A DNA stretch of 56,518 nucleotides, the filler included, from Platydemus manokwari (lineage: Eukaryota): assembly GCA_037951405.1 (NCBI GenBank). It is 5 parts of 5 records of this genome, joined end to end, with 100 filler letters (N's around TTAATTAATTAA, not from the genome) between each part and the next. Parts side by side here need not be neighbours in the genome. Positions count along the whole stretch, not along the records: positions 33,454 to 45,112 come from JBBMOY010542218.1; 4 more parts are not named here. One strand, written 5' to 3'. The number at the start of each line of letters is the position of its first letter. Within the stretch, counting starts at the first letter, position 1. This document shows positions 6,444 to 56,518 of the stretch, piece by piece. The notes under the pieces were generated by a model that did no database searches, was not told the DNA's origin, and saw only the letters and a program-made list of their open reading frames with translations. A program made the translations under genes and the position numbers.

Positions 6444-8342
6444 TTAAACCAGATTTCGAAACGCGCTTTGATAAAATTCATAATACTCAGGAAGATAATC
6501 AAAACAATCTAATTCTTCCCGGCCTTCTTGATAGAATTGGTCAACGACTTTCCGGTACTGTTTGTTTTGAAATGCTACACAATAATGGCAAACGTTTCTA
6601 TTGAAGCAGTCTTTCAGTTTAAGACAATCGGGAAAATTGTCCACTAGATATTGAAACAATCCATCATTTTTAGAGGTGATCGCCCAATGAATAATTGACA
6701 TTCCCTTTTTGTTGTATGCAAAGGCGTTCATTTCGTTTTTGATTACATCACTCCAATTCAAATCGGTGACTGAATTGGATGTTGAGAATATTTTTGAAGT
6801 CTTTTCATGCTCTTCTGGGAGACTTAAGTAAAAGTCCGCTACTTCCTGAGATACATCAAACAGATCTGGCCCACAAAGATCATAAATATTCGGAAAGTTT
6901 TCATAATACCCACAAATATATAGATTTTGTAAAGCCTGAAGATTTTCTTCATTGATCATGTTTAAAATTACAGAATCCAAATCATCTTTAATATTCATGT
7001 AATTCATCGATTGAGCTATTTCCTTCAAAGTATTAGCATTGCTGTCACGAAGACCAAAATTTACACCTCTTTTAACGATTTCAAACCAATCAACTTCCGA
7101 CGAATTAAAGGATTGCAATTTTTTAATCAAAAGTTTATAACCATACGGAGTACCACATTTATCCCTCGCAACTTTCGCGAAAGGAGAAAATATTTCGGGA
7201 TTAAAAGTGAAAACTTTTTCATCGGAATGAAAATCGGAATCAATCTTAATTCTCGATGATAAGACTTCATATTCATAGTCACTACTATCAAGATTCGTGG
7301 CATAGAATTTAAGAAAATTTCCCAAAAAGTCAATCGGATCTAGTGGTCGCTTTTCAACCACCAAAGCGAAAGCTTTAACGAGAGCATTCCCAACAGTTCG
7401 TTTCAAATATGCACTTTCATTTTTATCTGGTTTCGTTAGAGATTGAATATTTTCAGTGCGCTTTTTCAATTGAAATTCCATCAGATCTGATTTGATAAAT
7501 TCTTTATAATAATCGAAATTCAAAAGATGTGGATAACATTCATAATATTCGGGACAATTTCCCAAAACGTCTACAAAGTTAAATAGACAATTTGTAGACA
7601 TATCAACAATGATTTCGTTGCGTTGAGGTGTAGATTTAATAGAAAAGAGATAATGTAATGCCGTCCTACCCATATGATCAGTAGCCTTGATGTCATTTTG
7701 CAAGCAAATTTCTTTCATATAATTAATGAAATCATACTTTTCAAACACCACCGCAACATGGATTAAAGTCAGCCCAGATTGATTGCGAAATGAAAGGAGT
7801 TCATTTGTTTGAAATGTAGTTGATCTAAGAGAATCTTTGAAAATATTGAAATTACCAGAATCATTTTCAACAACCAGTTCAGTGAAAAGTCTGACATTCT
7901 CCGTAAGGCTTTCAATCGATGTCAAAAATGCCGTGAAATTATCATTTAATGAATCCCTCAATTTTTCAATAGCACTTTCCAAATACGGTTTATAATTCCA
8001 GCCTTGAACAATTAAACTTCTTATATAATCGCCTTCGCAATTGCGCAATTTATCCGCCAAATAGTCCACAAGTTCATTTTCATAAAACTTTTCCAACTTT
8101 CGACCTGGGAATAAGTCCTGGGCTAATTTAAATTCTTCATTCCGCAGCGAGATATTTGAACGTTTCAGAATGATTTCAAACACATCAACTTTGCATTCGG
8201 CTTGAACCAACAGATGGAGCAAAGAATTCCCATGTTCATTTCGAGTGTCCAAAAGCGATAAATCCAACTCTTCGAGTTTGTGTTTGATTTCTTCAATATC
8301 TTCTGTTTGAATAATGATATCACAGAAATAATTCAACGACAT
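6444..8342 (-). CDS. Ankyrin-repeat protein with a central Dpy-30/RIIa-like dimerisation-docking motif (632 aa, single exon)
   Basis: Uninterrupted 632-aa ORF. Ankyrin-like segments GNSLLHLLV, GLTLIHVAV, GRTALHYLF, GMSIIHWAI, NRNVCHYCV; Dpy-30-like motif YLKRTVGNALVKAFALVVEKRPLDPIDFLGNFL. Confidence 0.85.
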   Translation of the reverse strand: MSLNYFCDIIIQTEDIEEIKHKLEELDLSLLDTRNEHGNSLLHLLVQAECKVDVFEIILKRSNISLRNEEFKLAQDLFPGRKLEKFYENELVDYLADKLRNCEGDYIRSLIVQGWNYKPYLESAIEKLRDSLNDNFTAFLTSIESLTENVRLFTELVVENDSGNFNIFKDSLRSTTFQTNELLSFRNQSGLTLIHVAVVFEKYDFINYMKEICLQNDIKATDHMGRTALHYLFSIKSTPQRNEIIVDMSTNCLFNFVDVLGNCPEYYECYPHLLNFDYYKEFIKSDLMEFQLKKRTENIQSLTKPDKNESAYLKRTVGNALVKAFALVVEKRPLDPIDFLGNFLKFYATNLDSSDYEYEVLSSRIKIDSDFHSDEKVFTFNPEIFSPFAKVARDKCGTPYGYKLLIKKLQSFNSSEVDWFEIVKRGVNFGLRDSNANTLKEIAQSMNYMNIKDDLDSVILNMINEENLQALQNLYICGYYENFPNIYDLCGPDLFDVSQEVADFYLSLPEEHEKTSKIFSTSNSVTDLNWSDVIKNEMNAFAYNKKGMSIIHWAITSKNDGLFQYLVDNFPDCLKLKDCFNRNVCHYCVAFQNKQYRKVVDQFYQEGREELDCFDYLPEYYEFYQSAFRNLV

Positions 8343-10260: not shown

Positions 10261-10360
10261 NNNNNNNNNNNNNNNNNNNNNNNNNNNNNNNNNNNNNNNN
10301 NNNNTTAATTAATTAANNNNNNNNNNNNNNNNNNNNNNNNNNNNNNNNNNNNNNNNNNNN
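10261..10360. other. Assembly gap with TTAATTAATTAA linker
   Basis: 44N + TTAATTAATTAA + 44N. Confidence 0.98.
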
Positions 10361-12332: not shown

Positions 12333-12965
12333 TGTGAGGAAAATCAAAATTTTAAAAATTAAAACGGACAAAATTATAATAATTTTAAAAATAAATTATT
12401 TAAAATGTTCGTGTTTGGGGTTTCCTTGGTTTATTTGAATTATCAGTCTCTATATTAATTTTATTGTGGATCAATGCCGACTTGATCAGTCTCTGTGAGC
12501 TCTGACCTACGCCTTAAGGTACACAAATTAAAACTTAACTTATAGTCTTCTTTTCTTCACATCGCTATCAAAACTATGTGGAGATAGTATGATAGGCAGC
12601 AATGATCCAGTTAATATTTTTATCAGTCTCAAAATGTATTTTGCTCGCAAACAAATCTAAATTTCAATGATTTTATCCTATTGAATCAACAACGCAACAC
12701 TTCACGTTTACAGTAACGTTTATTAGAATTATAACAATGATACAATTATACACTTATAAAAATGTTTGGGTTTAAACTACGATATACACTAAATAAAATG
12801 ACCTAAACGGCTACAAATTACAAATTCAGGAAGAACACGGTTGCGTACTTCAACTCTAGAAGCAGAACCTTTACCTCAAGATAGTTGAGACAAAGCTCCA
12901 TAATAAAATGATAAGCGAAATACGGTATATAATAAAGATGATGATTTTATAGGTATGGTCTTACT
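12333..12965 (-). mobile_element. Partial LTR (3' half), same family as 42763-44006 and 47566-48741
   Basis: Reverse complement contains tggatcattgctgcctatcatact, gtaccttaagg..cagagactgatcaagtcggcattgatcc and gaagtacgcaaccgt, all shared with the other copies; ends ...cctcaca. Confidence 0.75.
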
Positions 12966-22967: not shown

Positions 22968-23067
22968 NNNNNNNNNNNNNNNNNNNNNNNNNNNNNNNNN
23001 NNNNNNNNNNNTTAATTAATTAANNNNNNNNNNNNNNNNNNNNNNNNNNNNNNNNNNNNNNNNNNNN
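22968..23067. other. Assembly gap with linker
   Basis: 44N + TTAATTAATTAA + 44N. Confidence 0.98.
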
Positions 23068-33353: not shown

Positions 33354-33453
33354 NNNNNNNNNNNNNNNNNNNNNNNNNNNNNNNNNNNNNNNNNNNNTTA
33401 ATTAATTAANNNNNNNNNNNNNNNNNNNNNNNNNNNNNNNNNNNNNNNNNNNN
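33354..33453. other. Assembly gap with linker
   Basis: 44N + TTAATTAATTAA + 44N. Confidence 0.98.
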
Positions 33454-35419
33454 ATTGATTGGGATTTACATATACACCAATTAAAAACCTAATGTTTTAT
33501 CTCACTTATTTCTCAATATGTTCATGAAAATTTGATTTCACTTTTATCAGTGTATTCAAATGATTTTTGCTCGCAATTATCAAGGAAATAAAACGATCAG
33601 GAAAAAGAAAATGAAAGAGAAAAGGAAAATTTTAATTTCAAATTTATTGTAGAAACCTCTTTATTTTCCATAATCAAATGCTTTCATTTTTTTCCGTTGC
33701 TTTTGAAAACGAAAGTGGTTAATGATTTATTATCTTTTATCATTGATTTCTCCTGTGATGAGAATTACAAATATCGACTAAACATGTCATTATTTTGCAA
33801 ATGATAAACAGCTATATTCATTTGGGAAATAGCTAGTATTTGATATTTATATTGAAACCTTAATGAATTGATCATTGTATAGAGTATTGCATATTTTGAT
33901 GAACCATAAGATCCTTTTGTTCGTTTTAATATTCATGAGTGAAAAAATCTCAAAATTGATCGATTAGTGATTGGTTTATTGTTCGATCGATCTTACTTAT
34001 CGAAATGCAGAATTTCAATGGCACAGTGCCTGTTGTCAAACCGTTTCCGTCAACTATTTCTCTTAACTGTTATTTTATTGGTCCAATTAAATGATATATT
34101 CACAGATCAACTAAAAATGTGGACAATATATATAAATTGTTGCCGTGACTTTTCAGTTCAGTTTTAAAGTGTGGTGTTTAAAATAGTAGCGGCTTGCATA
34201 GAGATTTAATATAAAATTGTTGATGCTCAATTGTAAAAAATTTTAAACTTATTTTTACCTAATTAATTTATGTTTAAAAATTTAATGAAATTTGTATCAA
34301 AGATTTTAAATTTAATATTCTTATCAATAAGTTATTGATTAATAATTATTATGTTCTTAATCTAATAAAATGTTCATGCTTTCATTTATATTTACATATG
34401 GAAATTTTGACAACTCATTTATCAGTCAATGAACCTGATGTCAAAAGCTGATAGGTGAAATAACAGATTTGCTGGTAAATTTGATTTATAAACTTGCTAT
34501 TATTAACAAGTTTGGTTTTTTGGAAGTTAGCCATCAAATAGTGAGATATTTAATTATTTTTTAAAATTATTCTCCAATATTATAATTGGCTTTCTCATAG
34601 TTAAATTATATATTTATTTTTTAGTTAATTTAATTTAAATTATTTGTTTGAAACAATAAAATAGAAGTTAATATTTGTGAGACATTTAATGTTTCACATT
34701 TTAAATATAACAGTTTTCTAAAAATAACTTTGAATATTTGTTGGAATATTTAGGCTGAAAAATACTTTTATGGTTGAACTTCTTAAATTCGTGTTTTATA
34801 AAATAATTGTGAGTTACATAGATAATTTAAGTTAGGGATTTACTTCTAAGAATAATTTGTCAAACAAGATGGAATAAAATATAATTAATCTTAGTTACAC
34901 AATAAAATCAATAAATCAATTATTCGAAAACCATTAAAAGTTTAAAATTAAAACAAGTATTTTAAAAAATACTATAAAAAAGCGCGAGTATAAATGCTAA
35001 ATTTGTAAAAAAACATTTGAAACTTTTCAGCCTTTTAAAACCCATGAGAAATCCTAAAAAATTTAAAAATATAAATGATAGTTGTGAGGTTTGTATAAAA
35101 ATACGATAAATAATTAAATTTTAGAAAAACAAATAAAATTATAAAAAATTGAGAAAAACATTGATATTTATAAAATGATCTTGCTTTAAAAAAATTAATT
35201 TTAACATCTCAGTTTTAAAAAATATTAAAAAATTGGATAAATTATTAAAAGTAAAGATGTAATATAAATATGCAAGCAATTTTATTTGAAAGAAGAAATA
35301 TCAGATGGAAATAAATTTTAAATATTTTAAAAAATGTTCAAAAATTGATGTATTGAAAATATATTTTTGGGTTGGTGAAAAAATGACTTTTTATTTAAAA
35401 ATCAAAGACGAAGAAATTT

Positions 35420-36230
35420 TGGCAATTAACCTGGCTACCACGCACATGAATTCCATAGTTAGTTTGTTGCTGCAAGAAAGATTTAAAATTGGTGATAATA
35501 TCGAACAGTTTATAAAATTTTACGAATGCAAAAGAGTAGCTCACATACCAAGAAATTGTCCAAATACCATGAAGTGTGATAGATGTCAATACTGAGAACA
35601 TCACGAGACAGAATACTATAATAATTTAGCCAAAAGAGTACGACAAAGGACCAACTACTAGTAAAGTACAGCAATAATCCACAGAAGGATTGATCACAGG
35701 CAGAGCACCACAAGAAGAAGTCCAATTAATGATGACAGATATAATTTCGATGGATAAAATTACAGAATGGTGACCCGAAATAATAAACCAGAAGCTGTAG
35801 TCGAACAAGAATCGTATTCAGAATACAACAAAGAATAAACATGATAACACGCAGACTCCCATAGAATGGATCTGGCTATACACTAAACAGCAAATATAAG
35901 TCTGAGCAAGATTCCGAGAGTAATTATATTAGTATTTATAATATAAATATTTTATTTAAAAGAAACAGAATGAAAAATAAAATAAAAAAACAAGGCAAGG
36001 TACAGAGCATAGATAGTTCAGAAAGTAAATAAACAAATTTAATAACTACAATGGCATAGAATCAGGAATGATAGTACAATGAAAAGTCGTAAAATGGATG
36101 ATAGAATTTGGATGCTTGTGACACACTGAAGCAAGAGTAAATGTCATAAATAAGATGATATTACAGACACTCAAAAAGGTAGAAGTCGAATATATAAAGT
36201 GAAAGTTTAAATTGTGCCAAGTTAGGAAGT
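35420..36230 (+). mobile_element. Ty3/gypsy gag-protease remnant
   Basis: Two degenerate CCHC knuckles (FYECKRVAHIPRNC; CDRCQY*EH) followed by a protease-like MLV/DTEARVNVI (D-T-G motif, frameshifted) at about 36115-36150. Confidence 0.65.
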
Positions 36231-36699
36231 CAGTTCAAGATTATTCCTATTTTTCATATTTTATATTTGAATGCATGAATAAATTTGATAAAAAATCTAT
36301 GAAATTTTTTGTGTTTCAATCTCCTCAACATTGTGATAATCATATATCGATCTAAGTTTCTTCGATATCTATAACAAAATTATGAATCCTTCAAAAAACA
36401 AAAAGAATTTGTCATTTTTAATGATTATGTTTCAGAAAAAATCAAACAAAAATGCCCACTTATTATACAAGAGGAAGTCATAATAATCATGATTATCTAT
36501 CACGAGGTTTGTTTGATTTACCAAAGAAAATAATAGGAAATAATAATTTAAATTTTATTATTTTGTTTAAATCAAATAAAAGAAATAAATCCTGCACTTG
36601 CAAGAATTATAAACAACGCGATACCACGCTGCAGTCAGCATTTAGTTTAGTAATCATCTCTTTTTCTACAGAGCACTTTTACCACAACACACACTTAAA

Positions 36700-37860
36700 G
36701 ATCAACATCATGCTGTGCCACATGCAGCGCAAATGCTCCAAATGCTCAAATGACTAAACAAGCTATTTTGTAAGTCTTGGCATATTCAAGAATAAATCAT
36801 AACAGTTCAACAGAATACTCTGGTTTGCGATTAAGAATACTTCACCAAACTCGAGCTAGAAAATTAAGAAGTCTCTAAGGATTCAACACTGAACAGAATA
36901 ATTCTGGTATTATGGATCTTTCACAATAATGTCATTTGATTAGCCCAAAACTCCAATGACTCCAGCATCTCGCTTTACACACTATCAGATTCAGACGCAG
37001 AAATTCCTCAAAAATCCTCCATGTCAACTAGATCTCACTTACATAATTTCTGTCAAAAGAGTTGCTATAACTTCATCATATATGTTTCTAATTGATGGAA
37101 GAAATGCACAGCGAAACTTTTGTCCAAAAATTTACTGTCAATCCAAAACATAAAATTAAAGTCATCTAATCAAATCAGTAGGTCAACATTGATTATTTGC
37201 TTGAGTCTTTAGGTTTCTGACTGTTTTGCTTGGGATTTCGAACATATTTGTTTTAGACAGGAAAACAAATACAACAAGGAAATGGACCAAAACATGGTTT
37301 GTACCTCGAAAACTAATCACACATTAAATCTCTGTCAAGTCCAATCACCATAACAATAAGATACAACTGAAAGTCACTGTGTATCCGGATAAGATATACT
37401 TTTTCTTTAAAGAAAACCGTGGGAAACTCTATCGTATACTTCATTACTCATCATCAATGTCCTTTTTCAATGAATAGTCCGCAATAAAAAAACAGAGCAA
37501 TCATCTATCACAAAAATAGCTAAAATTATCAAATTCACTCACCAAGCTCGTAACAATCTGCTTTTACAGAACTTTACAACTTATTTTAAGAATCTCAACA
37601 AGTCAATATTTTTCCGCAGATGCGAAATGGATGCGTATAGTTTTATCCACTGTCCATTGGACCCTGGTCTTGCATCGAAACGCCATATCACTATTTTGGA
37701 TAATTTCGGACACTATTAACAATCTGTTGGACTGGAGACTGACATCCATTCAAGCCCGCCTAAATCTAGTACAAAATCAAGACTAAATCTAATCATCAAA
37801 AGCAAAGGGAAGAAACAGAGCAGCGAAATTCTCAGTTCTCAATCTATAACCTTTTGGTCT
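36700..37860 (+). mobile_element. Possible heavily decayed LINE (CR1/L2-like) reverse transcriptase
   Basis: Weak motifs in the expected order: LSL*VSDCF (LDF.KAFD-like), KWTKTWFVPRKL (KWI.SWL..RKQ-like), VTVYPDKI, KLVTICFYRTL. Confidence 0.3.
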
Positions 37861-38968
37861 TTCGCTTTTGATTTCCAAAAAAGGTGCGAATTCAAATCGT
37901 TTTGACCCATTGCGCAATAATTACAATAATATTTTATTTTATATTTTAATTAATTTTTTTATCTTATACGACTTTATAACCTTAATATATCTAAAAACAT
38001 TTATTTTGTTCGTAATTTACCAATCTCCACCACTACTAATTATCGTCACAGAATTTCTCATATTAATATCTCGCAGCTAACACCTTATTTATGCACACTT
38101 AATTAAATGAATTTAATATTACATCATCACATCATGATGTGAATAATTCAATTGTTTCTGAACTTCCACGCATCAGAACCATAATTACTCACATATCAGT
38201 TCCACATCGTACTGAATGTCTGAACTTCTCTTCTTTAGCTGAAGGCAAAATAACTCTCCGGTCAAATCATTTAAGCGTTCATTATTTCACATGATACTTA
38301 ATCGTTTTGGCAATTTTTTCTATTTTATAATCTCGACTCCTGGAGAATTGTTTTCTGATTAATTCACTGGAATAATCAACGCTGGAATTTATACATTATA
38401 GACATTACAAAATCCGCTTTATTTTTCATCGATCTTGCCACCTGTTTTCTAAGTGCTTTCTTTTCACAAACTCTAAATCCGATAAATTAGCAAATATCAG
38501 ATGAATTCAATCACTATTACTAATATTAACGCAATTAAGTCTTATAGTGTTATGTTTTTTCCACGCGGGCCACTCATTGAAAAAGGAAATGGATGTCCAA
38601 TCATGAAGTATATCAGTCTCAAACTATGATGAACACAAACTAGCTCCCGTGAGATGTCTTTTTAAAAATATGACGCAATGCTAACGAACTTTTTTGGCAC
38701 CAAACTAGATCAACAAACAAATGCAAAGCACTGCACTGGACCTTCGTCGTAAATAACTAATAGTTCAAAACTCACTAGTCTTAAGAAATCAACCACCAGC
38801 TACGACAAAAGAAAAATTCTCATGTGAAGTCGAATGAATCCTCAGCTTAAGCGAATCCAAAAGATCCTGCATTTCAATCAAAGCATCAGCCAGTTTTCAC
38901 TCTTAAAAATCTACCTTATCTTCGTACAAGAAAAGTCCTTCTTCTCAAGAAATTAAACACAAAAAGAT

Positions 38969-39488
38969 ATGAGAAAATTAAAACTTTCATTTTGGACACG
39001 AGCTTTCGTTACAATTCAAAATAAACAATCGCCATCGGCAAACGTAACTCTAAAGCAAGGATTAGAAACAATGAATTTACGAACCAATTTTTGTATATAC
39101 TGTAAAAAGATATAAGGATATATCACTGATTGGAACATTAGCAAAAATAGGAATAAATAAAGAAAAGGAAATCAAATTAAATAACACCATGCCATCTAAG
39201 ACAATCATATTATCATCATTGGGAATACATAATATAACATATACACAGTGTTATGCGAACCAATATACATCGAAATGATATTGTAAAAAAAGAAAAGCAA
39301 TCCAGTGGAAAAATGAATTAGAACAAATAAGAAAAGAAAAAGATAAAATAATTAAGGATAGAATTGGAACGTTAAAAACTGTTAAAAAATATGAACAACA
39401 TATTAAGAGTTTAAAATTTGCCTTAATAGCTAGTCTAGCTATAACATTCATAGCAATAATAATAATATATGGAAAAAAGAAGAAATAA
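38969..39488 (+). pseudogene. Decayed accessory ORF with CxxC, coiled-coil and C-terminal TM helix
   Basis: Fragments MRKLKLSFW..FCIYCKK, QWKNELEQIRKEKDKIIKDRI, LKFALIASLAITFIAIIIIYGKKKK. Confidence 0.45.
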
Positions 39489-39598
39489 TGATATCACAAC
39501 ACCAATAATATATGGAAGAAGAATTCCAAGAATAGCAGCACTAACAACTGTAATGATAATGATACCATGCGTTCAAACGTGCGACAGCCCAGTCATGA

Positions 39599-40138
39599 TG
39601 TTCACTTTTTATTAATATAGGTAGAGAAGAATTAAAAGTATATAGTAGATATGGAAAGATGATACTGAATAACAAATATAAGAATGAAAAGATGAAATCA
39701 TTTACGGTACAACTTAAAAAAGAATTAAGAGTTAAGGGGGAAAGAAATTGGCAAACATCTGATAATAGATTACTCGAGAGTGACAATGGAGCTGTAAATA
39801 TATATAATTTAAATTGCAGAACCATATATCAGTTAGAAATAAGTAAAGAAAAAGATATCACAACAATGACAGTCCAAACCTCCGAATTACCCCGTAAAAT
39901 ATTTATTGAAAAACTCTTAGATCAGATTAAAATCATTTGGGAAGATTTAAAATGCCTTGAAGTAAGAGTGCCTGTAAATGAACATCAATATAAAATAAAT
40001 ACATTAGAAGGAATCATCACCCGGAATTTCAACATCAAAAAACCTGTAAATTTATATTTCTGGTATTATGAAAAAAGAAATCCCGAATTCATAATTCATC
40101 GAGAGCAAATAATACTAAAACCCTTTGTAAAAAAATAA
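39599..40138 (+). pseudogene. Accessory ORF, divergent macro-domain-like (TARG1/OARD1/Poa1-type)
   Basis: Collinear resemblance to TARG1: FTVQLKKEL~IAVLFKKKF; GAVNIYNLNCRTIYQLEISK~GEVAVLKRDGRYIYYLITK; LDQIKIIWEDLKCLEVRVP~LEAMKSHCLKNGVTDLSMP; INTLEGIITRNF..VNLY~WENVSAMIEEVF..ITVY. Frame is open from 39599. Confidence 0.45.
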
Positions 40139-40789
40139 TAACAACAAAATTTGTTAGTAAAACAACAACGAAGACTATGAGAACATCAGTTAATAATATC
40201 ATGACCCTCAAAAGTTATAAGAAACCCAGAGTGAAATCACCCCAAACATAATGAAGGTCGGAGCAGTTATCTCCAGTCTGACCACCATAATGATAATGTT
40301 CATAAGCTATAAGTTGTATAGGAAATATTGCAGAGACAACCCTCGTGTATGGGAAGTCAATCTATAGCAATTTCAGAAAAAAATAAATTCTCGTTGTAAA
40401 ATCTTTGGTTATTTAATTTCAATCAATTTGTATAAGTATCAATGGGACCAGAAAATCAATATGTACATAAAAAGTAGTTATTTTAATAATTTAGAAATTT
40501 TAAATGAAAAAAATTTGTGTAAATATCAGAAATCAATATATAAAACAATAGTTGATTACTTCAAATTATGTAAAAATAAAAATAAACTTTTATGTCAAAG
40601 AATGTATGAAGGATTTAAATATTGTAGATATAAAATAAAGCATGGTGAATTAATAAATGTAATTAATTTTCTTACAAAAATGACAGCAAATAAAATAATG
40701 GGAAAAAATAATTTAACCAATAAGAAAATTCCTGAAAAATCCTTACCCAATGAAAAAATCACGCATACATAATCAACCAACCAAAATCA

Positions 40790-42658
40790 TGCGCTAAGCT
40801 CATATAAAAGAAACTCTTTAGTAGATAAAAATCATAAATTCCTAGACGTAAATATTGATTGACAACTGTACAAGTAAGGATTTGTTATTTTAATATTGGC
40901 ACCAATTACGATATCATGATTACAGACATGGAACCAGCTACGAGTATAGTGCAATATTACCCTAGACGTTTTTACAACGCCATCCGTGCAGCAGTAAGAA
41001 AAGCACCGTTCGGGATTGGCAGAAGAATATTTTCAGATGCAATCCACATACCCAACAATTTGAAAACAGCGTCCCAGTCTAAAAGAACAGTATTAATTCT
41101 GCATTCACAGGAGCAGGGAGTGTTCAAATTGAAGGACATCCTTCCAATACTCAAATTTGCCCCACAAGAACTTAAGATACACAACGTTCAAAGCGATGTC
41201 TTTATCGAATACCCAGAAGAAAAAATTGAACTTGAAACGCAAGCATCAATAACCATTTATATGAAATCTCAAATTCGACCCAATTTTCAGAATGATTACA
41301 CGCAGATAAAAATCAAAGCAAAAACTATTCCATATTCGATAATGATAGAATGTATTGAATCGGAGCAATTAGAACCCGTTGAATTAAGAGAGAGCCGTTA
41401 AATTTCAATTTACTGAACATGCCTTTCCTTGGTCCGAAAAATGAGATGTCATTTTTAAGAAATATCATCCCGATAAACCAGCAAGAAGTAAAAAAGCTGA
41501 CAGTCTTCTTCGATGCCAAATATGCAATTGATTTTAACAATAAAGAGTATCCAGTGTGGATATGTTTAAAGGATAACAGAAGAAATGACATTTTTAATGA
41601 AATTTGTTGCCCGAGGCAAGAGATCAAGCATTACCAGGAAAATAAGACACACACAGCAGAAAGCATGACCAGAGGAGCTATGGATGCTGAAGATGCCAGG
41701 AGAAAGGTGATAGAGTTAACCAGGGGAAAGATACTGGGTGGCTATGATCTTAAAAGGAAACTAAAAGCAGTCTCGATTTATATGGAAGAACTACTTGGAG
41801 TCAGGGATCTAAAGGGATAAATTGCTGTAGAAAATGAAATGAGAAGAAACCGGCATTTTCTGAGCAAAAACTTGCACGCGGCCATCGTGGAAAGGAAGAT
41901 GCCACAATTCAGGAATCGAACTGATGAAATTGATGCAATAATGAACATCTATCAGAAAATTGAGTCAAAATGGCAAGATAAAGAAGGAGACAATGACGAA
42001 ACTAGATGGAAACAAAAAATTCAGGATGAAGGACAACAAATGATAAAAAAGCCACCAACATATTCGAGTGGGCAGACGAGGAAATATTGACTGAAAATAC
42101 TATTATACGAGCCAAAAATCAAATATGGAAACTCAAGTCAGCAGAGGAACAAGTCCTGGAAAACAAGAGGAATAAATTTTGGAAAAAAAATATTCGGGAG
42201 TTCAAGACTTTGAGCGGATGGAAAAAATTCAGGTAATTAATTATTGCAATGAAATTCAGCCAGCAGCAGAAAAAATGGAATTGGACAATGAAAAAGAGTG
42301 CAAAGACGATGATGAATACGAACTCACATCTGAAGATGAAAGATTCCTAGAACAACTCTGTCAAGAGTCCATAATCGAGGATCAAATGCTGAAAAATGAA
42401 GAGGAATTCGAACAATTATGGCGAGAAGCGGAAGAGTATATTCGCCAGGATATTGTCAGAAACTCCAATCTCAACCCTAATGGGGAGGAATTCATCCCGA
42501 GACAATTATAGATGAGCACCAATGAAAAGAATCAGCCAATTGAAGTAAATGAAAGGAAACGAAAACGATCTGAAAATGCTGATGAGCCTCTAAAAAGAAA
42601 AAGCATGAGGACATGCTTCCATCAATCCCCGAGTAGTGTTGGGGATCGATCGATTTAA
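40790..42658 (+). pseudogene. Decayed long accessory ORF: unknown domain + DEDDh (REXO4/ISG20/PAN2-like) exonuclease fold + PAIP2-like acidic/PAM2 region + NLS
   Basis: ORFs 40859-41401, 41419-41820, 41839-42090 and 42179-42511 are joinable through a few frameshifts and single in-frame stops (41818-20, 42509-11). Motifs VFFDAK, GKILGGYDLKRKLKAV, VRDL, DAIMNIY, SNLNPNGEEFIP, RKRKR..KRK. Confidence 0.7.
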
Positions 42659-42752
42659 CAATTACTTTGTGTGCAAATAATACTTTTTTATTTTATTTTT
42701 GTGTTTTATTAACATTTAATGAACTTTTATATGTATAAAAGTAATTCTTATT

Positions 42753-42761
42753 AAAAAGGGG
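42753..42761 (+). promoter_or_regulatory. Polypurine tract preceding the 3' LTR
   Basis: aaaaagggg, 1 nt upstream of TGTTAA. Confidence 0.6.
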
Positions 42762-42762
42762 T

Positions 42763-44006
42763 TGTTAATTAGTAATTTTGTAACAATTTTTAGTGGAGAC
42801 GGTTGAATGATTTAGTATTAATGTATTTTTAGAAATAGTAATTAAAATGTTAGGAACCTTTTCGATACATTTGACATGGTGTCAAATGTATCAGAAATTT
42901 TTATCAATTTTTCGTAAATAATTTATGAACACAATTCCAGAGGGAGTTATAACGAAATATTTATAATAATAATAGTTTATAATAATATTGATAATTTATA
43001 TAAAATTACGTAATAATTATTATTTGAAGTGGCAACAATATAATTTATATTAAACAAATTAAAATGGCAACAGAATTAAATAATTAAAGGGAATAATATT
43101 ATAATATTTCTAGCATTAAAATTCTATAGTAATTTTAATAACAATCAATATTCGGAAAAACCCATGGGGAATTTTAAATATTGTAGCGATTTTAATCATT
43201 TAAGCCTGACGAATAAGAATAGTATAAATACAAGTTCAAATATCAGAACTTGCCCATTAATTTACGAAACCACAAGCCGATAGTACGTTTGCAAGAAGAT
43301 TATTAATACCAATCTCTCGAAGTTTAGAAGAATTGCTCGACCACAGATCATACGCCATTTTATGCCAATTTGCCATTTCAAGTAGTAAGTCAGATTTTGT
43401 GTAAACTACTGATTATCAATCTATAGTACGTATTGTATAGCCTTCTATTATAGAGTTTTACTCAAACACCTTTGGTAACTGGTTTTACGCCAAGAGCAGG
43501 CTGTATTAACCACTGTCATCTGGAATTTTTAGGTAAACCCGTCATCCGAATTTTTATATTGTTGTATAAAAGTATCGGAAATTGTAATTTTGTTATCGTA
43601 TCAATAAACCTTTTATTTAGTCAAACGTGTTGGAATTATCAATTGATATTTTAAAGTTAATATTGTTGAGACTGATTAGGATTAAAACACCCCTTTCGGA
43701 TCATTGTTGCCAATCATTTCTATCTTCATGTAGATTTGATTGCGAGGTGAATAAAGAAGACAATATAATGTTTAAGTGTACCCTGGGCTTGATTAGAACT
43801 CGCCAGAGACTGATCAAGACAACAGTGATCCTTGAGCAAAATCATTAACATTGAAATAACATTGAGACTGATTAAAACAAACAAATTAAAAATACAAGCC
43901 CAAAACGCAAAATCTATAAGAATTAGCATTTTTGATATTTTATTGTGCACAGAAATTAAAAAATTAATTAATGATAATTTTTTATTTATATTTACCTAAA
44001 AAAACA
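42763..44006 (+). mobile_element. 3' LTR (~1.24 kb), termini TGTT...AACA
   Basis: Preceded by a PPT; shares collinear blocks with 47566-48741 and 12333-12965 (e.g. ggatcattgttgccaatcat; gcttgattagaactc..gactgatcaagac; tatagagttttactcaaa). The 3' end is approximate. Confidence 0.65.
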
Positions 44007-45112
44007 TTGATAATAACGAGTCGTATTCGTTGTTGTTGTTATTGATGGAAATGTTATGATATTCTGGCGATAATAATGATTTGAATCAATTAGACAATCT
44101 CTATGATTCAAATATTATTTTATTTTAGTCCGTTAAAAGCAGATTAATAAGTATCCACTAAAAATTTGACTCCTCACTGAATTAAGGTTACCTTTATAAA
44201 TTTGAATAAATAATAACAAATAAGAATTATAAATGATATTTTTATTAATCAGTAATTACACAATATATGATCAAGTAAAATTAAAAGGATAAGCTTTATG
44301 CCCTGAAGTAATGAAAATCGGCGGAGGGTTTAGGTTCTCCCTTCTCCGAATACAAACTAAGAGAATGAAAAATGATTTTTAAGATCTACGAACTCTAATT
44401 TTCTTCAACTAATCCCATGTCGGAGATTGATGAAAAAATGATAATTTATAAAAACAAATAGAAAGTTACCATTGCAAGTGTAACGAATAAATAATTCCGC
44501 TGATCTTAGAATTCTATGTTCAGTAATATGCATCACAGGAAGCAGTTGATCATGAAGTTTCACGGATTATGATCTCTGAATGACAGCAATATGAGTTGCT
44601 GAATACTGACGTATGAATATAATGATCACCTTATTTCAGTGTGTGAAATATTTGTGCGATTTTTACTCAAATTTGTTTGCATATATACTGTTTCTCACGA
44701 GTTGCTGACTAAGCGTATAACACATAGTCAAGCTTCCTCGGAGCTTTCTGACGTTGCCATGGTTTTATTACTGAATAATTGAAGTTTCCATGGCAACTTA
44801 TGATTTGGTCATGTGAATTCTAAATTAGTCACTGCTGGGTAATAATGGTTTTTCTAAATTGGTCATATAATTTTATAATATAACTTGTTTTATAATTTTC
44901 TATTACGTAATTTTATATGTAATTTTTTAATTATTATATTATCTGTATTATATTATATGTATACTGGTCGACAAGATGTTTAACCCGGTCTTAATTAATA
45001 TACATTAAGGCGTTTTCCCAATTATTATTGTTGAGTTATTAGTATAACTGATTAATTATATGGTTATAAACACGAAAATAAATTGAAACCGTTTTCACAT
45101 GGTTATAAATAA

Positions 45113-45212
45113 NNNNNNNNNNNNNNNNNNNNNNNNNNNNNNNNNNNNNNNNNNNNTTAATTAATTAANNNNNNNNNNNNNNNNNNNNNNNNNNNNNNNN
45201 NNNNNNNNNNNN
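45113..45212. other. Assembly gap with linker
   Basis: 44N + TTAATTAATTAA + 44N. Confidence 0.98.
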
Positions 45213-46860
45213 TGATCAGTTCTCACAATAAATTTCTTACCATATAAGTAGTGCTTAAATTTTTTAACAAACACATAGATGGCTAGCAATTCTTTTCTTG
45301 TTATACAATATTTATGCTGCCCTTTTGTCAGTATTCTTGATGCGTACGCTATCACAAGTTCTTCTCCGTTTTGTATTTCCCTTCAAATTTCCATTCTCTG
45401 CATGAAATTAATGATAATTTCGATTTATGAAAAGATGTTGTTACTAAATCGCTCCACTCAAATTTACTGTCTTTCTTCAGTAATTGGTATAGTGGTTAGG
45501 TAAAACCAACAAAATATTTTATAAACCGCCTATCATAACCACATAATCCAAGATGATCCTGTAGTTCCTTGACACATTGAAGTTTTAATCAATTTTCTAT
45601 TTCCCCAATTTTTTCTTCATCTCTTCGTTTACCTCAATTTTTTACCCTTAATTTCCTAAATGCTTAATTTCTTTTCTAAAGAAAAATAATTTTTGGTGCC
45701 ATTTTAAACCCAGCCTCATCGATTCGATTCAAAACCCTTTCCAACTTTTTATTGTTTTCATCGACTGTTCTTTCAAATATTCGAATATCATCTAGATAGA
45801 AAGATAGACTACACAGTTTGTCCAATTTTCAGTCTTCATTATCACATTCATAATTGTCTGAAAAGTTGCGGGCACTGAATATAATCCAAAAGACATTCGA
45901 TTAAACTGAAATTGCCTGTATCTAGTGTTAAATTGTGTTTTTTCCTTTACTTCTTTTTCTAATTCAACTTGATAATATCCGTTTGCCAAATCTATTGTTG
46001 AAAAATATCTGGCTCCTTGCACAGCAACAAATATGTCTTCGGAATTCGATATAAGAAAAATTGAACTGGACGTAGCAGCATTTAACTTCATAGTCTTCGC
46101 TGATTACATTAAGCTCAGTTCCTGTGTCAAAACTTATATTCACTTTCTCATCTTCAACTTTACTATCGACTATTGGTAAGCTTTTTGTCTTTTCTGGTCT
46201 GCGATTCGTTGAAACCGTGTCTGTTTTGCCAACATTCGTTTTGGTTTAGCTCCTTGAATATTCACAAACTGTGCATAATTGACTTCGGTCGAATTGAATT
46301 GTTTGTCCCTAGACTTTTTTGGCTTAAAAAGTCACCAATATCCAACATATTGCAATCTTTCTCAGAAAGTGTATCCAACCCCCAGATATTGTCCTCTTCT
46401 AATGTGATGCTTCTGTCCTATGTATTTAAGTATTTGATTTGTACGACAGATTCTTTGCTGATGGGAACCAGCATATAGAAAACATTCAATTGTCTCACAT
46501 TAACGAGCATAATGCCATTTTTGTTAACAAGTTACGGCATCTATTGATTTGGAACCTGATTTCCGAAAAGTTTCGTTGTTCTATTAATTTGGCAATGTTT
46601 TGCTTGAGCCTTAAATTTGCTAATGATGTCCTTTTCGTCTGATTTTATGCGTTTCAGATCCCACGGTATATCCAAATCTTCTTATTCTTGATTTGAGACA
46701 TCAGTTTCTTCCTTGATAAGTATGACCACTTCATCTATATTCTTTAGGTTTGATTTCTTCAGGCCAAATGTATAGATCTCATTAAGAATCCCTTTAATGA
46801 ATATCTTCTTGGAAATTTCTTCCTTATTTTTAATATTAATCCCAGTCACGAAAAATTTAA
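45213..46860 (-). mobile_element. Ty3/gypsy gag-pol remnant (gag, protease, RT, RNase H) with internal deletions
   Basis: FDTGTELNVIS (protease); GARYFSTIDLANGYYQV..TQF..FQFNRMSFGL..PATFQ..CVVYL (RT); IAYASRIL..YCITRKELLAI..FKHYLYGKKFIVRTD (RNase H). Confidence 0.92.
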
Positions 46861-47565: not shown

Positions 47566-48741
47566 TGTGTAAAGAAAAAGCATAAAAATAATGACCAAAT
47601 GAGATAATTCGCCATTTCAAGATGAATAGGCATGAAAGATAAAAATGATTTATTATTGATACCTTAAATTTTGGACATAATTTACCAAGAGAATTTTAAT
47701 ATAAAAATTATTACGAAATTATAATTAAATTATTATCGTTAAAAATTATATCTTGATATATTACAATGGCTAGATAAGTTAAATCTTTAGGGAATAATAT
47801 TTAATATAATGATTTAATATAAAGATATGAGATATTTATAATAATGTAACAAAATACATATTCAACATTATTATAAGCGCCGTTTCAATTAAGAATAAAT
47901 AGGATTTGGAACATTACAACTGCCCATAAATTACTGAAACCACTAAGAAGCATATTTATTATGAAATCTACGATTTGCCAAAGAAGCCTGCGAATTATTC
48001 GACTCGATTTCCAGATTCAACCATTGTATTAATTTATTATTCAAGTCAAAGTGAGTCCGACTAATAGTATAAAATATTAATCGGTATTATATATTGTATC
48101 GTATATTTTCATACTATAGAGTTTTATCTCAAAAAAACCTCATCACGGTATTTGGTTCGGCTTCTCGAGATGAAGTTTGCAACCGTTTCTTATTTCCAGA
48201 ATTGTAAGACAATTTTGATTATACGCATAGTGTAATTATAAATAGCAAATTTATAATTGGTGTCAATTTATATAATAATAAAACTTACTGAATTCGATAG
48301 TTGTTAATTTGATAACGTACATAACATAGTTATAAGATAATTAAATTTGAGACAGATAATAGGAAAAGTATTTGGATCATTGCTGCCAATCATACTCTCA
48401 TCAAATAGTAATGATTGTCAGGTGAAGATAAGAAATAGTAAATTAAGGTTTAATAGATTGTACCTTAAGCTTGATTAGAACTCATTAAGATTGATCAAGA
48501 CGGCATTGATCCACAGTAACAAAATAGAAAATAATAAAACTGACAAGATAAAACATAAATCCACATGCTCGAAACACATCATATTAAATAAATTATTTTA
48601 TCTTATGTGTTATTTCATTTATACACGCAACATATTAATCTGTTAAGAATTAGATATTGGTTTTAACATTAATTTATAAAAAATCATCGATCGTCATATT
48701 GTTGATTTGTTTAATAGATCATCAGATTTTAAATAATTAAA
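47566..48741 (+). mobile_element. 5' LTR of a related LTR element (start approximate)
   Basis: Collinear similarity to 42763-44006 from about 47680 to 48580; followed by a PBS-like sequence. No clean terminal CA. Confidence 0.65.
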
Positions 48742-53408: not shown

Positions 53409-56294
53409 TCATAGAGTAGGCCTTTATATATCACACTAATAAATTAAGGAAAGGTTTTTTCAATTTCGAGACTGACTCCAAATGTTAATTTATGAAAGAA
53501 TCAATAGTGATTACATAATTTTTCAGGCATTCCTATCCCAAACAAATTTAAACACATTAGTGAAATATGTTTTAAATTTGCCAAATGCTAAATTTAAATT
53601 TTTTAAATCATATTAAGCTAATTTCGATCTTAGTTTGATTGAGTTATATGAATTGATATAAATGATTAGTAAGTTACGATAATACTGTGATTCGTTTCGA
53701 TTAAACGGGATGTTATTAACCGACTCCAATGGCATTACTCGTTTCAGTTGAAATAAACGAAAAAATACAAATTCATGAATGGATGGAATAATAAAAATTT
53801 TGTTAATATTTGAAATTTTTCTACATTTTTGTGAAGCTTAAATTTCTAAGTCGTAAAATCTTATTTCATACTGTTATCAATGATGCAACAAGTCAGCTAA
53901 GAACGGAATCAACATCTCGAACTTAATCAATCAATCAGTATATTTTCAATGTCAAATTACAAGGTTCACACACTCACTTAATAGAAAACGGTAAAGCTTG
54001 AAACTGTTAGATTTATTTAATTATTTTTCTTTATTTTTAACATTATCCATATTAATGATTTTTCCAAAAAACGTTTTCAACAATCACAAAATTTAACTAT
54101 ATTGATATTAGTTTCAATTTTCGTCCCAGTTTCAGATTCGATAATCACTAGAATGACTGTCGTATTTGTAACAATTTTCACAGTCATTCTACTGAGACAT
54201 TAAAGAGTCTTCAATTTTCTAATTTCACTTGATTATATTTCGATCTTTTCATTATCTTATCTTTCAAATATTTTTATCGATTCCATTTATTTAAATATAA
54301 AACATCGATGAAGTTTTTAAGTTGTTAATTTTAATAAAGTAAGCATTGGAAACTGACCGATAAGTCACGACACCAAATGATTCCTAAACATTTTTGTATT
54401 TTATAAAAGTCTGATTTTAAAATCTTCACAACGCTTAATATATTTTAATAAGTCTGTTTTCACCTGACTAGTTATTGAGGTTAATCAACAACTTTTATCG
54501 TTTATAGTTATTCTAGTTTTATTGTCTAGACTCTAGACTGAAAAATTATCTTTTTTATTGTTGTAAAATTGTTCTTCTTTTTAATGTTAAATAATTTTAA
54601 ATCTGCGAACCAATTACTGAATAATAGTCATGATCTGTAGAATTATTTTCTCTACATTTTAGTCAGTATTGAATCATTTACAAACATCCCATTCTTCGCA
54701 GAACACTATGACACTCATCTTATTATTCAATTTAGCTGTGAATAATATATGGGAATTTGCCATACGCCTTTTACTTCATTATCTTTCGAAGTAAAAGCGC
54801 ATTAATCGTCGCGATCTGGTAAAAAAATTTGGTTCATTGTTTTACAAAGCACGAATAACAATGCCATTTCTAATTTTAGTTTAGCTATCCATTTCTGTGC
54901 ACCGTAGACAACCAAATGAAAATACTTTTGGGAAGAAAAAGTTTAAAAGGTGTTATAATAGAGGACATTGTTTTAAGATGCAATCACGGTTTTATTCTTT
55001 TGTCTAACTGAAAACGAATCCACCACAATTCTCTCATGATCCCATTGGTCTAATGTAAATCTTGAGATCCATGGGACCTTAATTGTAAATCATTGAAATA
55101 TAGTTTCACAATATCATATAGCATATTTATCGAGTCATTATTTGATAAAAATCACACCAAAATAATATCCGAAAAATACTTTCATATTCAAATAATAATG
55201 GCTAACTAATTATTTGAAGGCAAATAGTTATTTTTAGATAGAGACTCTGTCAGCAAAGTTTAGATTTTATCAATAAACTGAAAGATGACTTTGTGCTAAA
55301 TATACAACAGTCTGTAAGTCGATGTAAATTTCCTATCCAAACAAAATCAGGTGAACCGTTTAAATAAAAATGACATTTCAAATTGACCACGAATTATCCA
55401 GTTAAGAATCAAATATATCAAAATGATCGATTCATGTGTAGTACAAATACGATTCCAAGGAACGATCGATTCTGATTGGGTAATTTCGACATTTATATAA
55501 ATAAATAACATTTTTCAAATCCTTGCCCCCAACCGGGACACCCGTGAACATTTGATAGCTTTTAATTTCAACAAGAATTTCCTCACATCGACAATTCATT
55601 TTTTCATCACAACCTATCATTAAGTTAAACAGAACAAATTTATTTGAACTTCATTTTCATTACAGCAAAGGCAGATTTTATTTGAAAAACAGTCAGCAAA
55701 ATTTTTACTTCAAATGATATTTTAATTAAATGACGTTTGGTGATTTAGTGGATTTATTTTAATTGCCATAAAATTGGAAATGATTTGACTGATAGGAATG
55801 ATATTTTGTCAATTTTGCTTTTTATTAATAACGATTGGCTAATTAGGTTTCCATTTCTTCATTGTTTGTAGAAGACTATTCATAGATAAATTAAATTTAA
55901 ATTCTTATGTCAGTCGATATTATGCGTCCCTATTTTCTATATTAAGCTAATTACTCTCATACTAGTTTTCTAAATCAATGATGACCATCATCGTATTTTG
56001 AAAGAATATAAACAATATATCATTAACATTTGATTTCGATGTTTAATATGGTTGAAAAATAAACCTGAAATTTGAATGTTAGAGAAATCTACCAATCTCA
56101 TGTTACCATGAAAATAAATAATGATCTTTGTGAGGTTAATTTGATAAAAAACAAAATGATATTTTAAAAATATGATTATTATCAAAACTATTATTAGTAA
56201 TGTGAAAAATAAATATACCATTTCGATATTTATAAAAGCCTAGGATTTTGAAAAACAATACTGTTATACACTCAGTATAAAAATAATTAAAAAT

Positions 56295-56518
56295 AAAATT
56301 GTTTGGATCCGGAAATGCCAAAATCAGAGCTGTGCATAATTGTTCCTTAAGGTTTCCAAAACTTTCCTCACACTCTGTACTCCACTCCAATTTCTTGTCA
56401 TTTCCAGTCATTATCGTATATAACGGAGCCGTAATTAATGGGTAATCCTTGATAAATCTTCTGTAATAATTGCATAATCCTAGGAACGACCTCAACTGAG
56501 TGATGCAACCAGGTTTAA
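56295..56518 (-). mobile_element. Ty3/gypsy pol fragment (RT thumb/connection), runs off the window
   Basis: LRSFLGLCNYYRRFIKDY..ITAPL..LEWSTECEESFGNLKEQLCTALILAFPD. Confidence 0.92.

Follow-up and report, generated by a model that had tools for sequence, protein, structure and literature searches.

The window analyzed here, a joined stretch of 56,518 nucleotides from Platydemus manokwari, carries on its plus strand a PAM2-like motif, SNLNPNGEEFIP. We put the probability of our best explanation at roughly 0.5: that the motif belongs to a broken accessory gene lying 3'-terminally in a multi-copy retroelement, likely of LTR type. That gene probably encoded one protein of ~400 residues, in which an RNase T/ISG20-like domain, changed at its catalytic positions, was followed by an acidic stretch, the PAM2-like motif and a basic tail, and this protein would dock on the MLLE domain of host PABP. 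The near-match to PAM2 is thus read as probably the tail of a larger, likely inactive nuclease-like protein rather than a stand-alone copy of PAIP2. Between the pieces of the window stand runs of N, each enclosing the same 12-base linker (10261-10360, 22968-23067, 33354-33453 and 45113-45212), and the motif lies in the piece 33454-45112. The features of the locus are as follows.

39075-41401, plus strand: five tandem intronless ORFs or ORF remnants, upstream, without a family match (ORF scan; multi-copy by contig mapping).
39075-39488, plus strand: the upstream ORF with a C-terminal hydrophobic segment (ORF scan).
39659-40138, 40221-40367, 40461-40772 and 40916-41401, plus strand: the other upstream ORFs (ORF scan).
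41419-42090, plus strand: RNase T/ISG20-like domain of DEDDh type, interrupted by a stop at 41818-41820 and changed at its catalytic positions (Atlas, PDB).
42030-42236, plus strand: middle frame of 68 aa, overlapping both neighbours (stop counts, periodicity, one contig link).
42176-42511, plus strand: stop-free frame with the acidic stretch and the PAM2-like motif, ending in TAG at 42509-42511 (ORF scan, coding-like base periodicity).
42263-42445, plus strand: acidic stretch of PAM1-like composition, weakly similar, in colinear order, to the conserved block of PAIP2 (D/E content, alignment, mixed shuffle tests).
42464-42499, plus strand: PAM2-like motif with Gly at the conserved Ala position (sequence, PF07145 score, PAIP2 profile, chance test).
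42512-42658, plus strand: basic tail in the same frame past the TAG (48-aa frame, weak coding signal to 42598).
42753-42761, plus strand: polypurine-tract-like AAAAAGGGG, followed by TGTTAA at 42763 (sequence; depth rises there).

The motif stands at 42464-42499 as an earlier note on this DNA had quoted it, with the Gly codon at 42482-42484. Its core, LNPNGEEFIP, keeps the Leu, Asn, Glu-Phe and Pro of the PAM2 consensus LNxxAxEFxP, whose partner is the MLLE domain (excerpts of PMC7356810). The fifth consensus position is Gly, a position at which 65 of 65 fetched PAIP2 motifs have Ala. In the HMM and consensus scan proposed in the earlier note, Pfam PAM2 (PF07145) gave 14.8 bits (E 0.023; 14.3 bits with the tail included), under the 20-bit cut-off, the strict consensus had 0 matches across the six frames of the window, and only the relaxed form matched. 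That form, LNxx[AG]xEFxP, was found once in the window against 0.0017 expected from residue frequencies, and once in 150 simulated windows, while LNPx[AG]xEFxP, with the Pro included, is expected 0.00004 times in the window by chance; both relaxed patterns were picked post hoc, with the motif already in view. By these counts the motif lies far beyond chance for the window. A PDB search of the PAM2 frame returned two matches at E<=10, the better being the PAIP2 PAM2 peptide (1jgn_B, E 1.5), and a PAIP2 profile of 37 fetched proteins aligned with the PAM2 end of the frame at a probability of 81% over the last 21 columns, the residues before the motif aligning too.

According to excerpts of PMC7356810, the consensus Ala faces the MLLE surface, and a bulkier side chain there is unfavourable. 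Gly is smaller than Ala, so the window motif could possibly still bind MLLE, more weakly; the retention of Leu, Asn, Glu-Phe and Pro, together with the fact that only a bulkier substitute for Ala is unfavourable, counts for docking. A complex prediction of 38 residues around the motif with a stand-in MLLE from a giant-virus contig, run without controls, reached 0.25 against a mark of 0.34 and speaks neither for nor against binding. Atlas features gave no usable match for the PAM2 frame, and 0 of 9 candidates, all near-length proteins, were related to the frame with its tail. Neither this frame nor the nuclease-like one had relatives at E<=0.001 among 1.84 billion representatives; metagenome and viral contigs held none for either, the lone match being an unrelated phage locus.

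PAM2 motifs do occur in viral contigs. The canonical pattern was found at 43 IMG/VR loci (L015-L057), 37 of them in stop-free frames of at least 80 aa, and 12 of the 22 loci checked by Pfam pass the PAM2 cut-off. Their number makes the window motif plausible and less singular. Several of these motifs belong to capsids or polyproteins of RNA viruses (L044 helicase, L046 coat, L057 RdRP), others in giant-virus bins, and one locus (L020) has three copies. The Gly control pattern occurred at only 8 IMG/VR loci, and the five of these read in frame look by eye like phage proteins. MLLE domains were also observed on seven contigs filed as giant-virus or viral (L004, L005, L006, L009, L010, L013, L014), which are possibly host contamination; six of the seven exceed the Pfam cut-off, and in L013 the MLLE is fused to a RING finger.

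The stop-free frame spans 111 aa (42176-42508), or 97 aa from its first ATG at 42218, and the text EDERF...FIP begins at 42335. The protein text given in the earlier note agrees with the sequence and its coordinates, but lacks the RQL that precedes the stop and 14 residues that follow. One reading path runs from 41419 to 42658, and its breaks can be seen directly: two stops, and two frame changes near the A-runs at 42045-42050 and 42183-42190. The path carries 1 stop over 41419-42044 against 16 and 21 in the other frames, 0 over 42051-42182 against 1 and 2, and 1 over 42191-42658 against 17 and 8. The best coding score, measured as base periodicity, follows this low-stop path and was reached by 23 of 5000 shuffles in the nuclease-like frame, 184 of 5000 in the middle frame and 3 of 5000 in the PAM2 frame. 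Past the TAG the coding signal is weak to about 42598 (228 of 5000 shuffles) and absent after.

One other contig joins 42153 to 42307 via 37 other letters, by letter count leading from the middle frame into the PAM2 frame, and it lacks the stretch containing ATG 42218. No copy linking the nuclease-like frame to the middle frame was seen among the contigs examined. The single path is supported, but indirectly: a longer ORF, now broken, probably opened with the RNase T/ISG20-like domain and had the PAM2 frame as its C-terminal part. The breaks at the A-runs could be mutations or assembly errors, and TAG-ATG at the frame end could be a true stop and restart; most likely, no full-length protein is made from this copy. 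The basic patch RKRKRSENADEPLKRK at 42554-42601 has the pattern of a bipartite NLS, as the earlier note claimed, but lies past the in-frame TAG and is so separated from PAM2 in this copy. Patterns of this type occur in 17 of the 857 stop-free segments of at least 30 aa in the window and are thus uncommon but not rare. Nuclear relocation of PABP, which would rest on this patch beyond the stop, is the weakest part of the mechanism.

For searches, the nuclease-like frame (41419-42090) was translated with X at its one stop. Atlas assigned the first 133 residues to RNase T, with PF00929 in 24 of 30 matches (best score 0.90, recognition 3417). PDB searches placed ISG20 at E 0.099 and ISG20L2 at E 0.47, or at 0.059 and 0.8 with a trimmed query. 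Pfam PF00929 itself gave no match in this frame, 0 of 41 candidates (near-length proteins only) were related, and a single-sequence structure prediction was unusable (pLDDT 37). The ISG20 alignments have Lys at the ExoII Asp and Glu at ExoIII; the ExoI position, placed by eye against the family motif, presumably reads D-A-K. The DEDDh set is thus incomplete: with ExoI judged by eye, three of the four acidic positions (two Lys, one Glu) and the His appear changed. The nuclease-like fold, itself supported indirectly, is likely inactive.

Contig mapping places the PAM2 stretch inside a multi-copy element, in agreement with the earlier note: 1987 contigs map over 39000-45100, of which 654 are less than 90% alike. 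All come from one public run (X1), possibly the window's own source, and so are not independent; among the public runs listed, no RNA dataset contained the stretch. Contig depth, which is not copy number, is 142-1191 upstream, 42-99 over 40836-42467 and 353-909 over 42468-43079, and one contig skips or replaces 42382-42599, a region including PAM2. The low depth and this contig suggest that many relatives may lack the module or be too diverged, and the greater depth of 39000-40835 relative to the nuclease/PAM2 part suggests a swappable 3' module. Among the 40 of 1092 difference rows listed, those in two upstream ORFs are non-synonymous in 9 of 10 cases and synonymous in 1, which fits a copy that is free of selection and decaying; this decay may include the Gly and the stops. 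All 40 rows lie outside 42290-42658.

Downstream of the cassette, AAAAAGGGG is followed by TG, and TGTTAA at 42763 is likely the start of a 3' LTR. Motifs of the AAAAAGGGG type number two in the window, the second on the minus strand at 43696. The LTR identity is supported indirectly. No RT or integrase was found in 33454-45112, and no second LTR copy in the window. A weak retrotransposon peptidase remnant (36014-36240, plus strand, E 0.0055) precedes the cassette by ~6 kb and shares its strand, and zinc-knuckle-like text stands at about 35520-35620 (plus strand). The knuckle-like text and the peptidase remnant (35470-36240, plus strand) may together form the gag-protease end of the element that carries the cassette. 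Between the peptidase remnant and the cassette lies a decayed stretch of opposite base skew (36240-38950, minus strand); its reading as Gypsy pol is unsupported, as it has no Pfam or meaningful PDB match.

Within the putative LTR, 43250-43870 is a very high-depth repeat (depth up to 7520) related to 12461-12633 and 48346-48519, with no Rfam or Pfam match; Rfam gave no match anywhere in 33454-45112. Elsewhere in the window, 6444-8342 (minus strand) is one ORF of 632 aa whose product has ankyrin repeats and a Dpy-30 motif, and other LTR elements have left RT and RNase H-linked remnants at 45795-46245 and 56139-56516 (both minus strand). The host is an animal with an AT-rich genome and intron-bearing genes.

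The acidic stretch bears on whether the frame descends from PAIP2. Excerpts of bioRxiv 10.1101/2021.02.07.430161 describe PAM1 as acidic and binding the RRMs of PABP, with PAM2 holding Paip2 on PABPC1 in cells. The earlier claim of a PAM1-like stretch holds for composition, with 30% D/E in the 97-aa ATG frame; outside PAM2, the signs of homology are faint and mixed. The comparison set consisted of exons from 16 metagenome loci, found by motif, and 109 proteins from one locus; it is mostly arthropod, and the PAIP2 of the host group lies outside it. With PAM2 removed, single PAIP2 blocks reached p<=0.01 in 13 of 48 cases, and of the fish-type exons, one was matched by 26 of 3000 shuffles and the next by 398 of 3000. 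The PAIP2 conserved block has an invariant Phe, Trp and NEEEF, of which NEEEF is present in the second of two possible alignment registers only.

An alternative that we consider rather unlikely makes the reading from ATG 42218 to TAG 42511 a stand-alone 97-aa gene captured from host PAIP2, encoding a PAM1 plus PAM2 inhibitor that strips PABP off poly(A), with the basic tail as a separate small ORF. The order of parts and the size would suit it, the distance between PAM2 Leu and stop being 13 residues here and 15-41 in the 58 PAIP2 proteins compared, and the frame can be aligned end to end with PAIP2, sharing Glu, Asn and Cys columns. With PAM2 removed, only 21 of 3000 shuffles reach the score for both fish-type exons and, before bias correction, 26 of 2000 (local) or 67 of 2000 (global) that for the arthropod block; all 21 segments taken from upstream of viral PAM2 motifs also score lower (mean z <=1.0 vs 2.25 here). 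Yet the reversed control scores 60 against 62 for the real sequence with the fish-type exons, 1421 of 2000 shuffles reach the bias-corrected score for the arthropod block, and without PAM2 the PAIP2 profile gives a probability of 3%, its score being reached by 15 of 300 shuffles. The Trp that is invariant in the conserved block (37 proteins) is absent in both registers, no PAIP2 match was found at E<=0.001 among the 1.84 billion representatives, and the contig that enters the PAM2 frame from upstream does so without the ATG 42218 stretch. PAIP2 descent of the acidic stretch is thus only hinted at, and the captured fragment proposed in the earlier note was not borne out. The PAM2 frame could act like PAIP2 but is not classed as a member, a capture origin being possible.

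If unbroken copies instead encoded an active, self-contained PABP-tethered 3'-5' exonuclease trimming poly(A), that enzyme would combine in a single chain the roles of Pan2 and Pan3, or of Caf1 and Tob. The domain order, nuclease then PAM2, fits this, and so does the precedent of Tob2 bridging Caf1 and PABP and of Pan2-Pan3 on the poly(A) RNP; since the copy is decaying, its altered catalytic positions may be decay as well. We nevertheless judge such an enzyme distinctly improbable, because the changes at three acidic positions and the His are more than the decay elsewhere would easily give, and none of the copies seen has all the DEDDh residues. A functionless look-alike in the acidic, low-complexity tail of a decayed repeat ORF would account for the missed Ala and Pfam cut-off, for the background appearance of the 8 Gly-pattern loci, and for the rare matches bound to occur when very many windows are screened. 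It is very unlikely, given about 0.002 matches expected per window (0.00004 with the Pro) and a motif that is read in the true coding frame and closes an acidic stretch, preceded by residues that align with PAIP2 (21 columns). A host gene or processed pseudogene without any mobile element, to which the absence of RT and integrase beside the stretch in 33454-45112 might point, is hardly credible in view of the many diverged contigs over the stretch and its neighbours, the intronless tandem ORFs, and the tract and TG that follow.

Against our preferred reading of a nuclease-like protein with a PAM2 tail count the Gly in place of Ala, the missed Pfam cut-off, the weak coding signal of the middle frame (184/5000), the absence of relatives in the protein and contig collections searched, the contig that skips or replaces the PAM2 region and the low depth there, and the lack of RT, integrase and second LTR. 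If it holds, PAM2 would dock the protein on the MLLE of PABP bound to poly(A) tails, and the occupied MLLE would exclude the host PAM2 proteins that bring decay or repression, namely Paip2, Tob, Pan3 and GW182. Tob, Pan3 and GW182 use PAM2 to reach PABP. The likely dead nuclease fold would bind RNA ends and, with the acidic stretch, protect or reshape the 3' end, to the benefit of the element's own polyadenylated RNA. General repression would do little for an element whose mRNA depends on PABP, which favours occupation of MLLE against decay or silencing adaptors. A more far-reaching version, unlikely in our estimate, sees here a single-chain mimic of PABP-tethered deadenylase machinery in an animal LTR retroelement family, in which an ISG20-like fold, PAIP2-derived PAM1/PAM2 and an NLS would control poly(A) tails or drag PABP into the nucleus.

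By titles and the beginnings of abstracts, we found no paper on a transposon- or virus-encoded PAM2 protein, and excerpts of PMC12846552, PMC13517186, PMC8532177 and bioRxiv 10.1101/2025.10.09.680815 name none. DEDD nucleases as extra ORFs of rotifer LTR elements are already known (excerpts of PMC5408684 and PMC6431247). The current basis is a single decayed copy with a variant motif. Should the single-chain mimic prove true, a transposon-encoded PABP ligand would be described for the first time; should unbroken copies retain the layout, a mobile element would be acting directly on poly(A)-tail control, an arena where deadenylases, miRNA silencing and translation termination compete. The PAM2 tail also offers a testable answer to the role of accessory nuclease-like ORFs.

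Among known systems, PAIP2 (PDB 1jgn_B; excerpts of bioRxiv 10.1101/2021.02.07.430161) shares with the window an acidic stretch followed by a PAM2-type motif near the stop, and short words such as NEEEF. It differs in that the PAM2 frame here has Gly for Ala, lacks the invariant Trp and most aromatics of the conserved block, is broken, and probably belonged to a larger nuclease-like protein of a repeat element. ISG20 and ISG20L2 (PDB 1wlj_A, 7yw5_A; PF00929) show weak colinear similarity over ~130 residues, and Atlas leads to PF00929; the nuclease-like frame falls below sequence significance, with no Pfam match, the catalytic set apparently not kept and an internal stop. Burro, the giant Gypsy of planarians, is likewise an LTR element in an AT-rich animal genome and has several accessory ORFs directed at the regulation of its host; compared by description only, it has BIR, BCL2, MATH, ankyrin, SUMO-like and env domains, with no PAM2 or RNase T in the excerpted text (PMC6431247).

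The bdelloid rotifer LTR retrotransposons Juno and Vesta, and the Terminons, carry a DEDDy exonuclease as ORF3 and, as excerpted in PMC5408684 and PMC6431247, resemble the locus in having a DEDD-superfamily extra ORF in the 3' position of a retroelement. The rotifer ORF3 has intact catalytic residues and no PAM2 in those descriptions, whereas the nuclease-like frame here falls on the DEDDh side, with altered catalytic positions and with acidic, PAM2-like and basic additions. The predicted protein would also couple a DEDD-type nuclease fold to PABP through PAM2, in the manner of Pan2-Pan3 and Tob-Caf1. Those are two-protein host complexes in which active nucleases are tethered to PABP via PAM2; the locus would place the parts in one predicted, likely inactive chain, likened to these complexes by layout.
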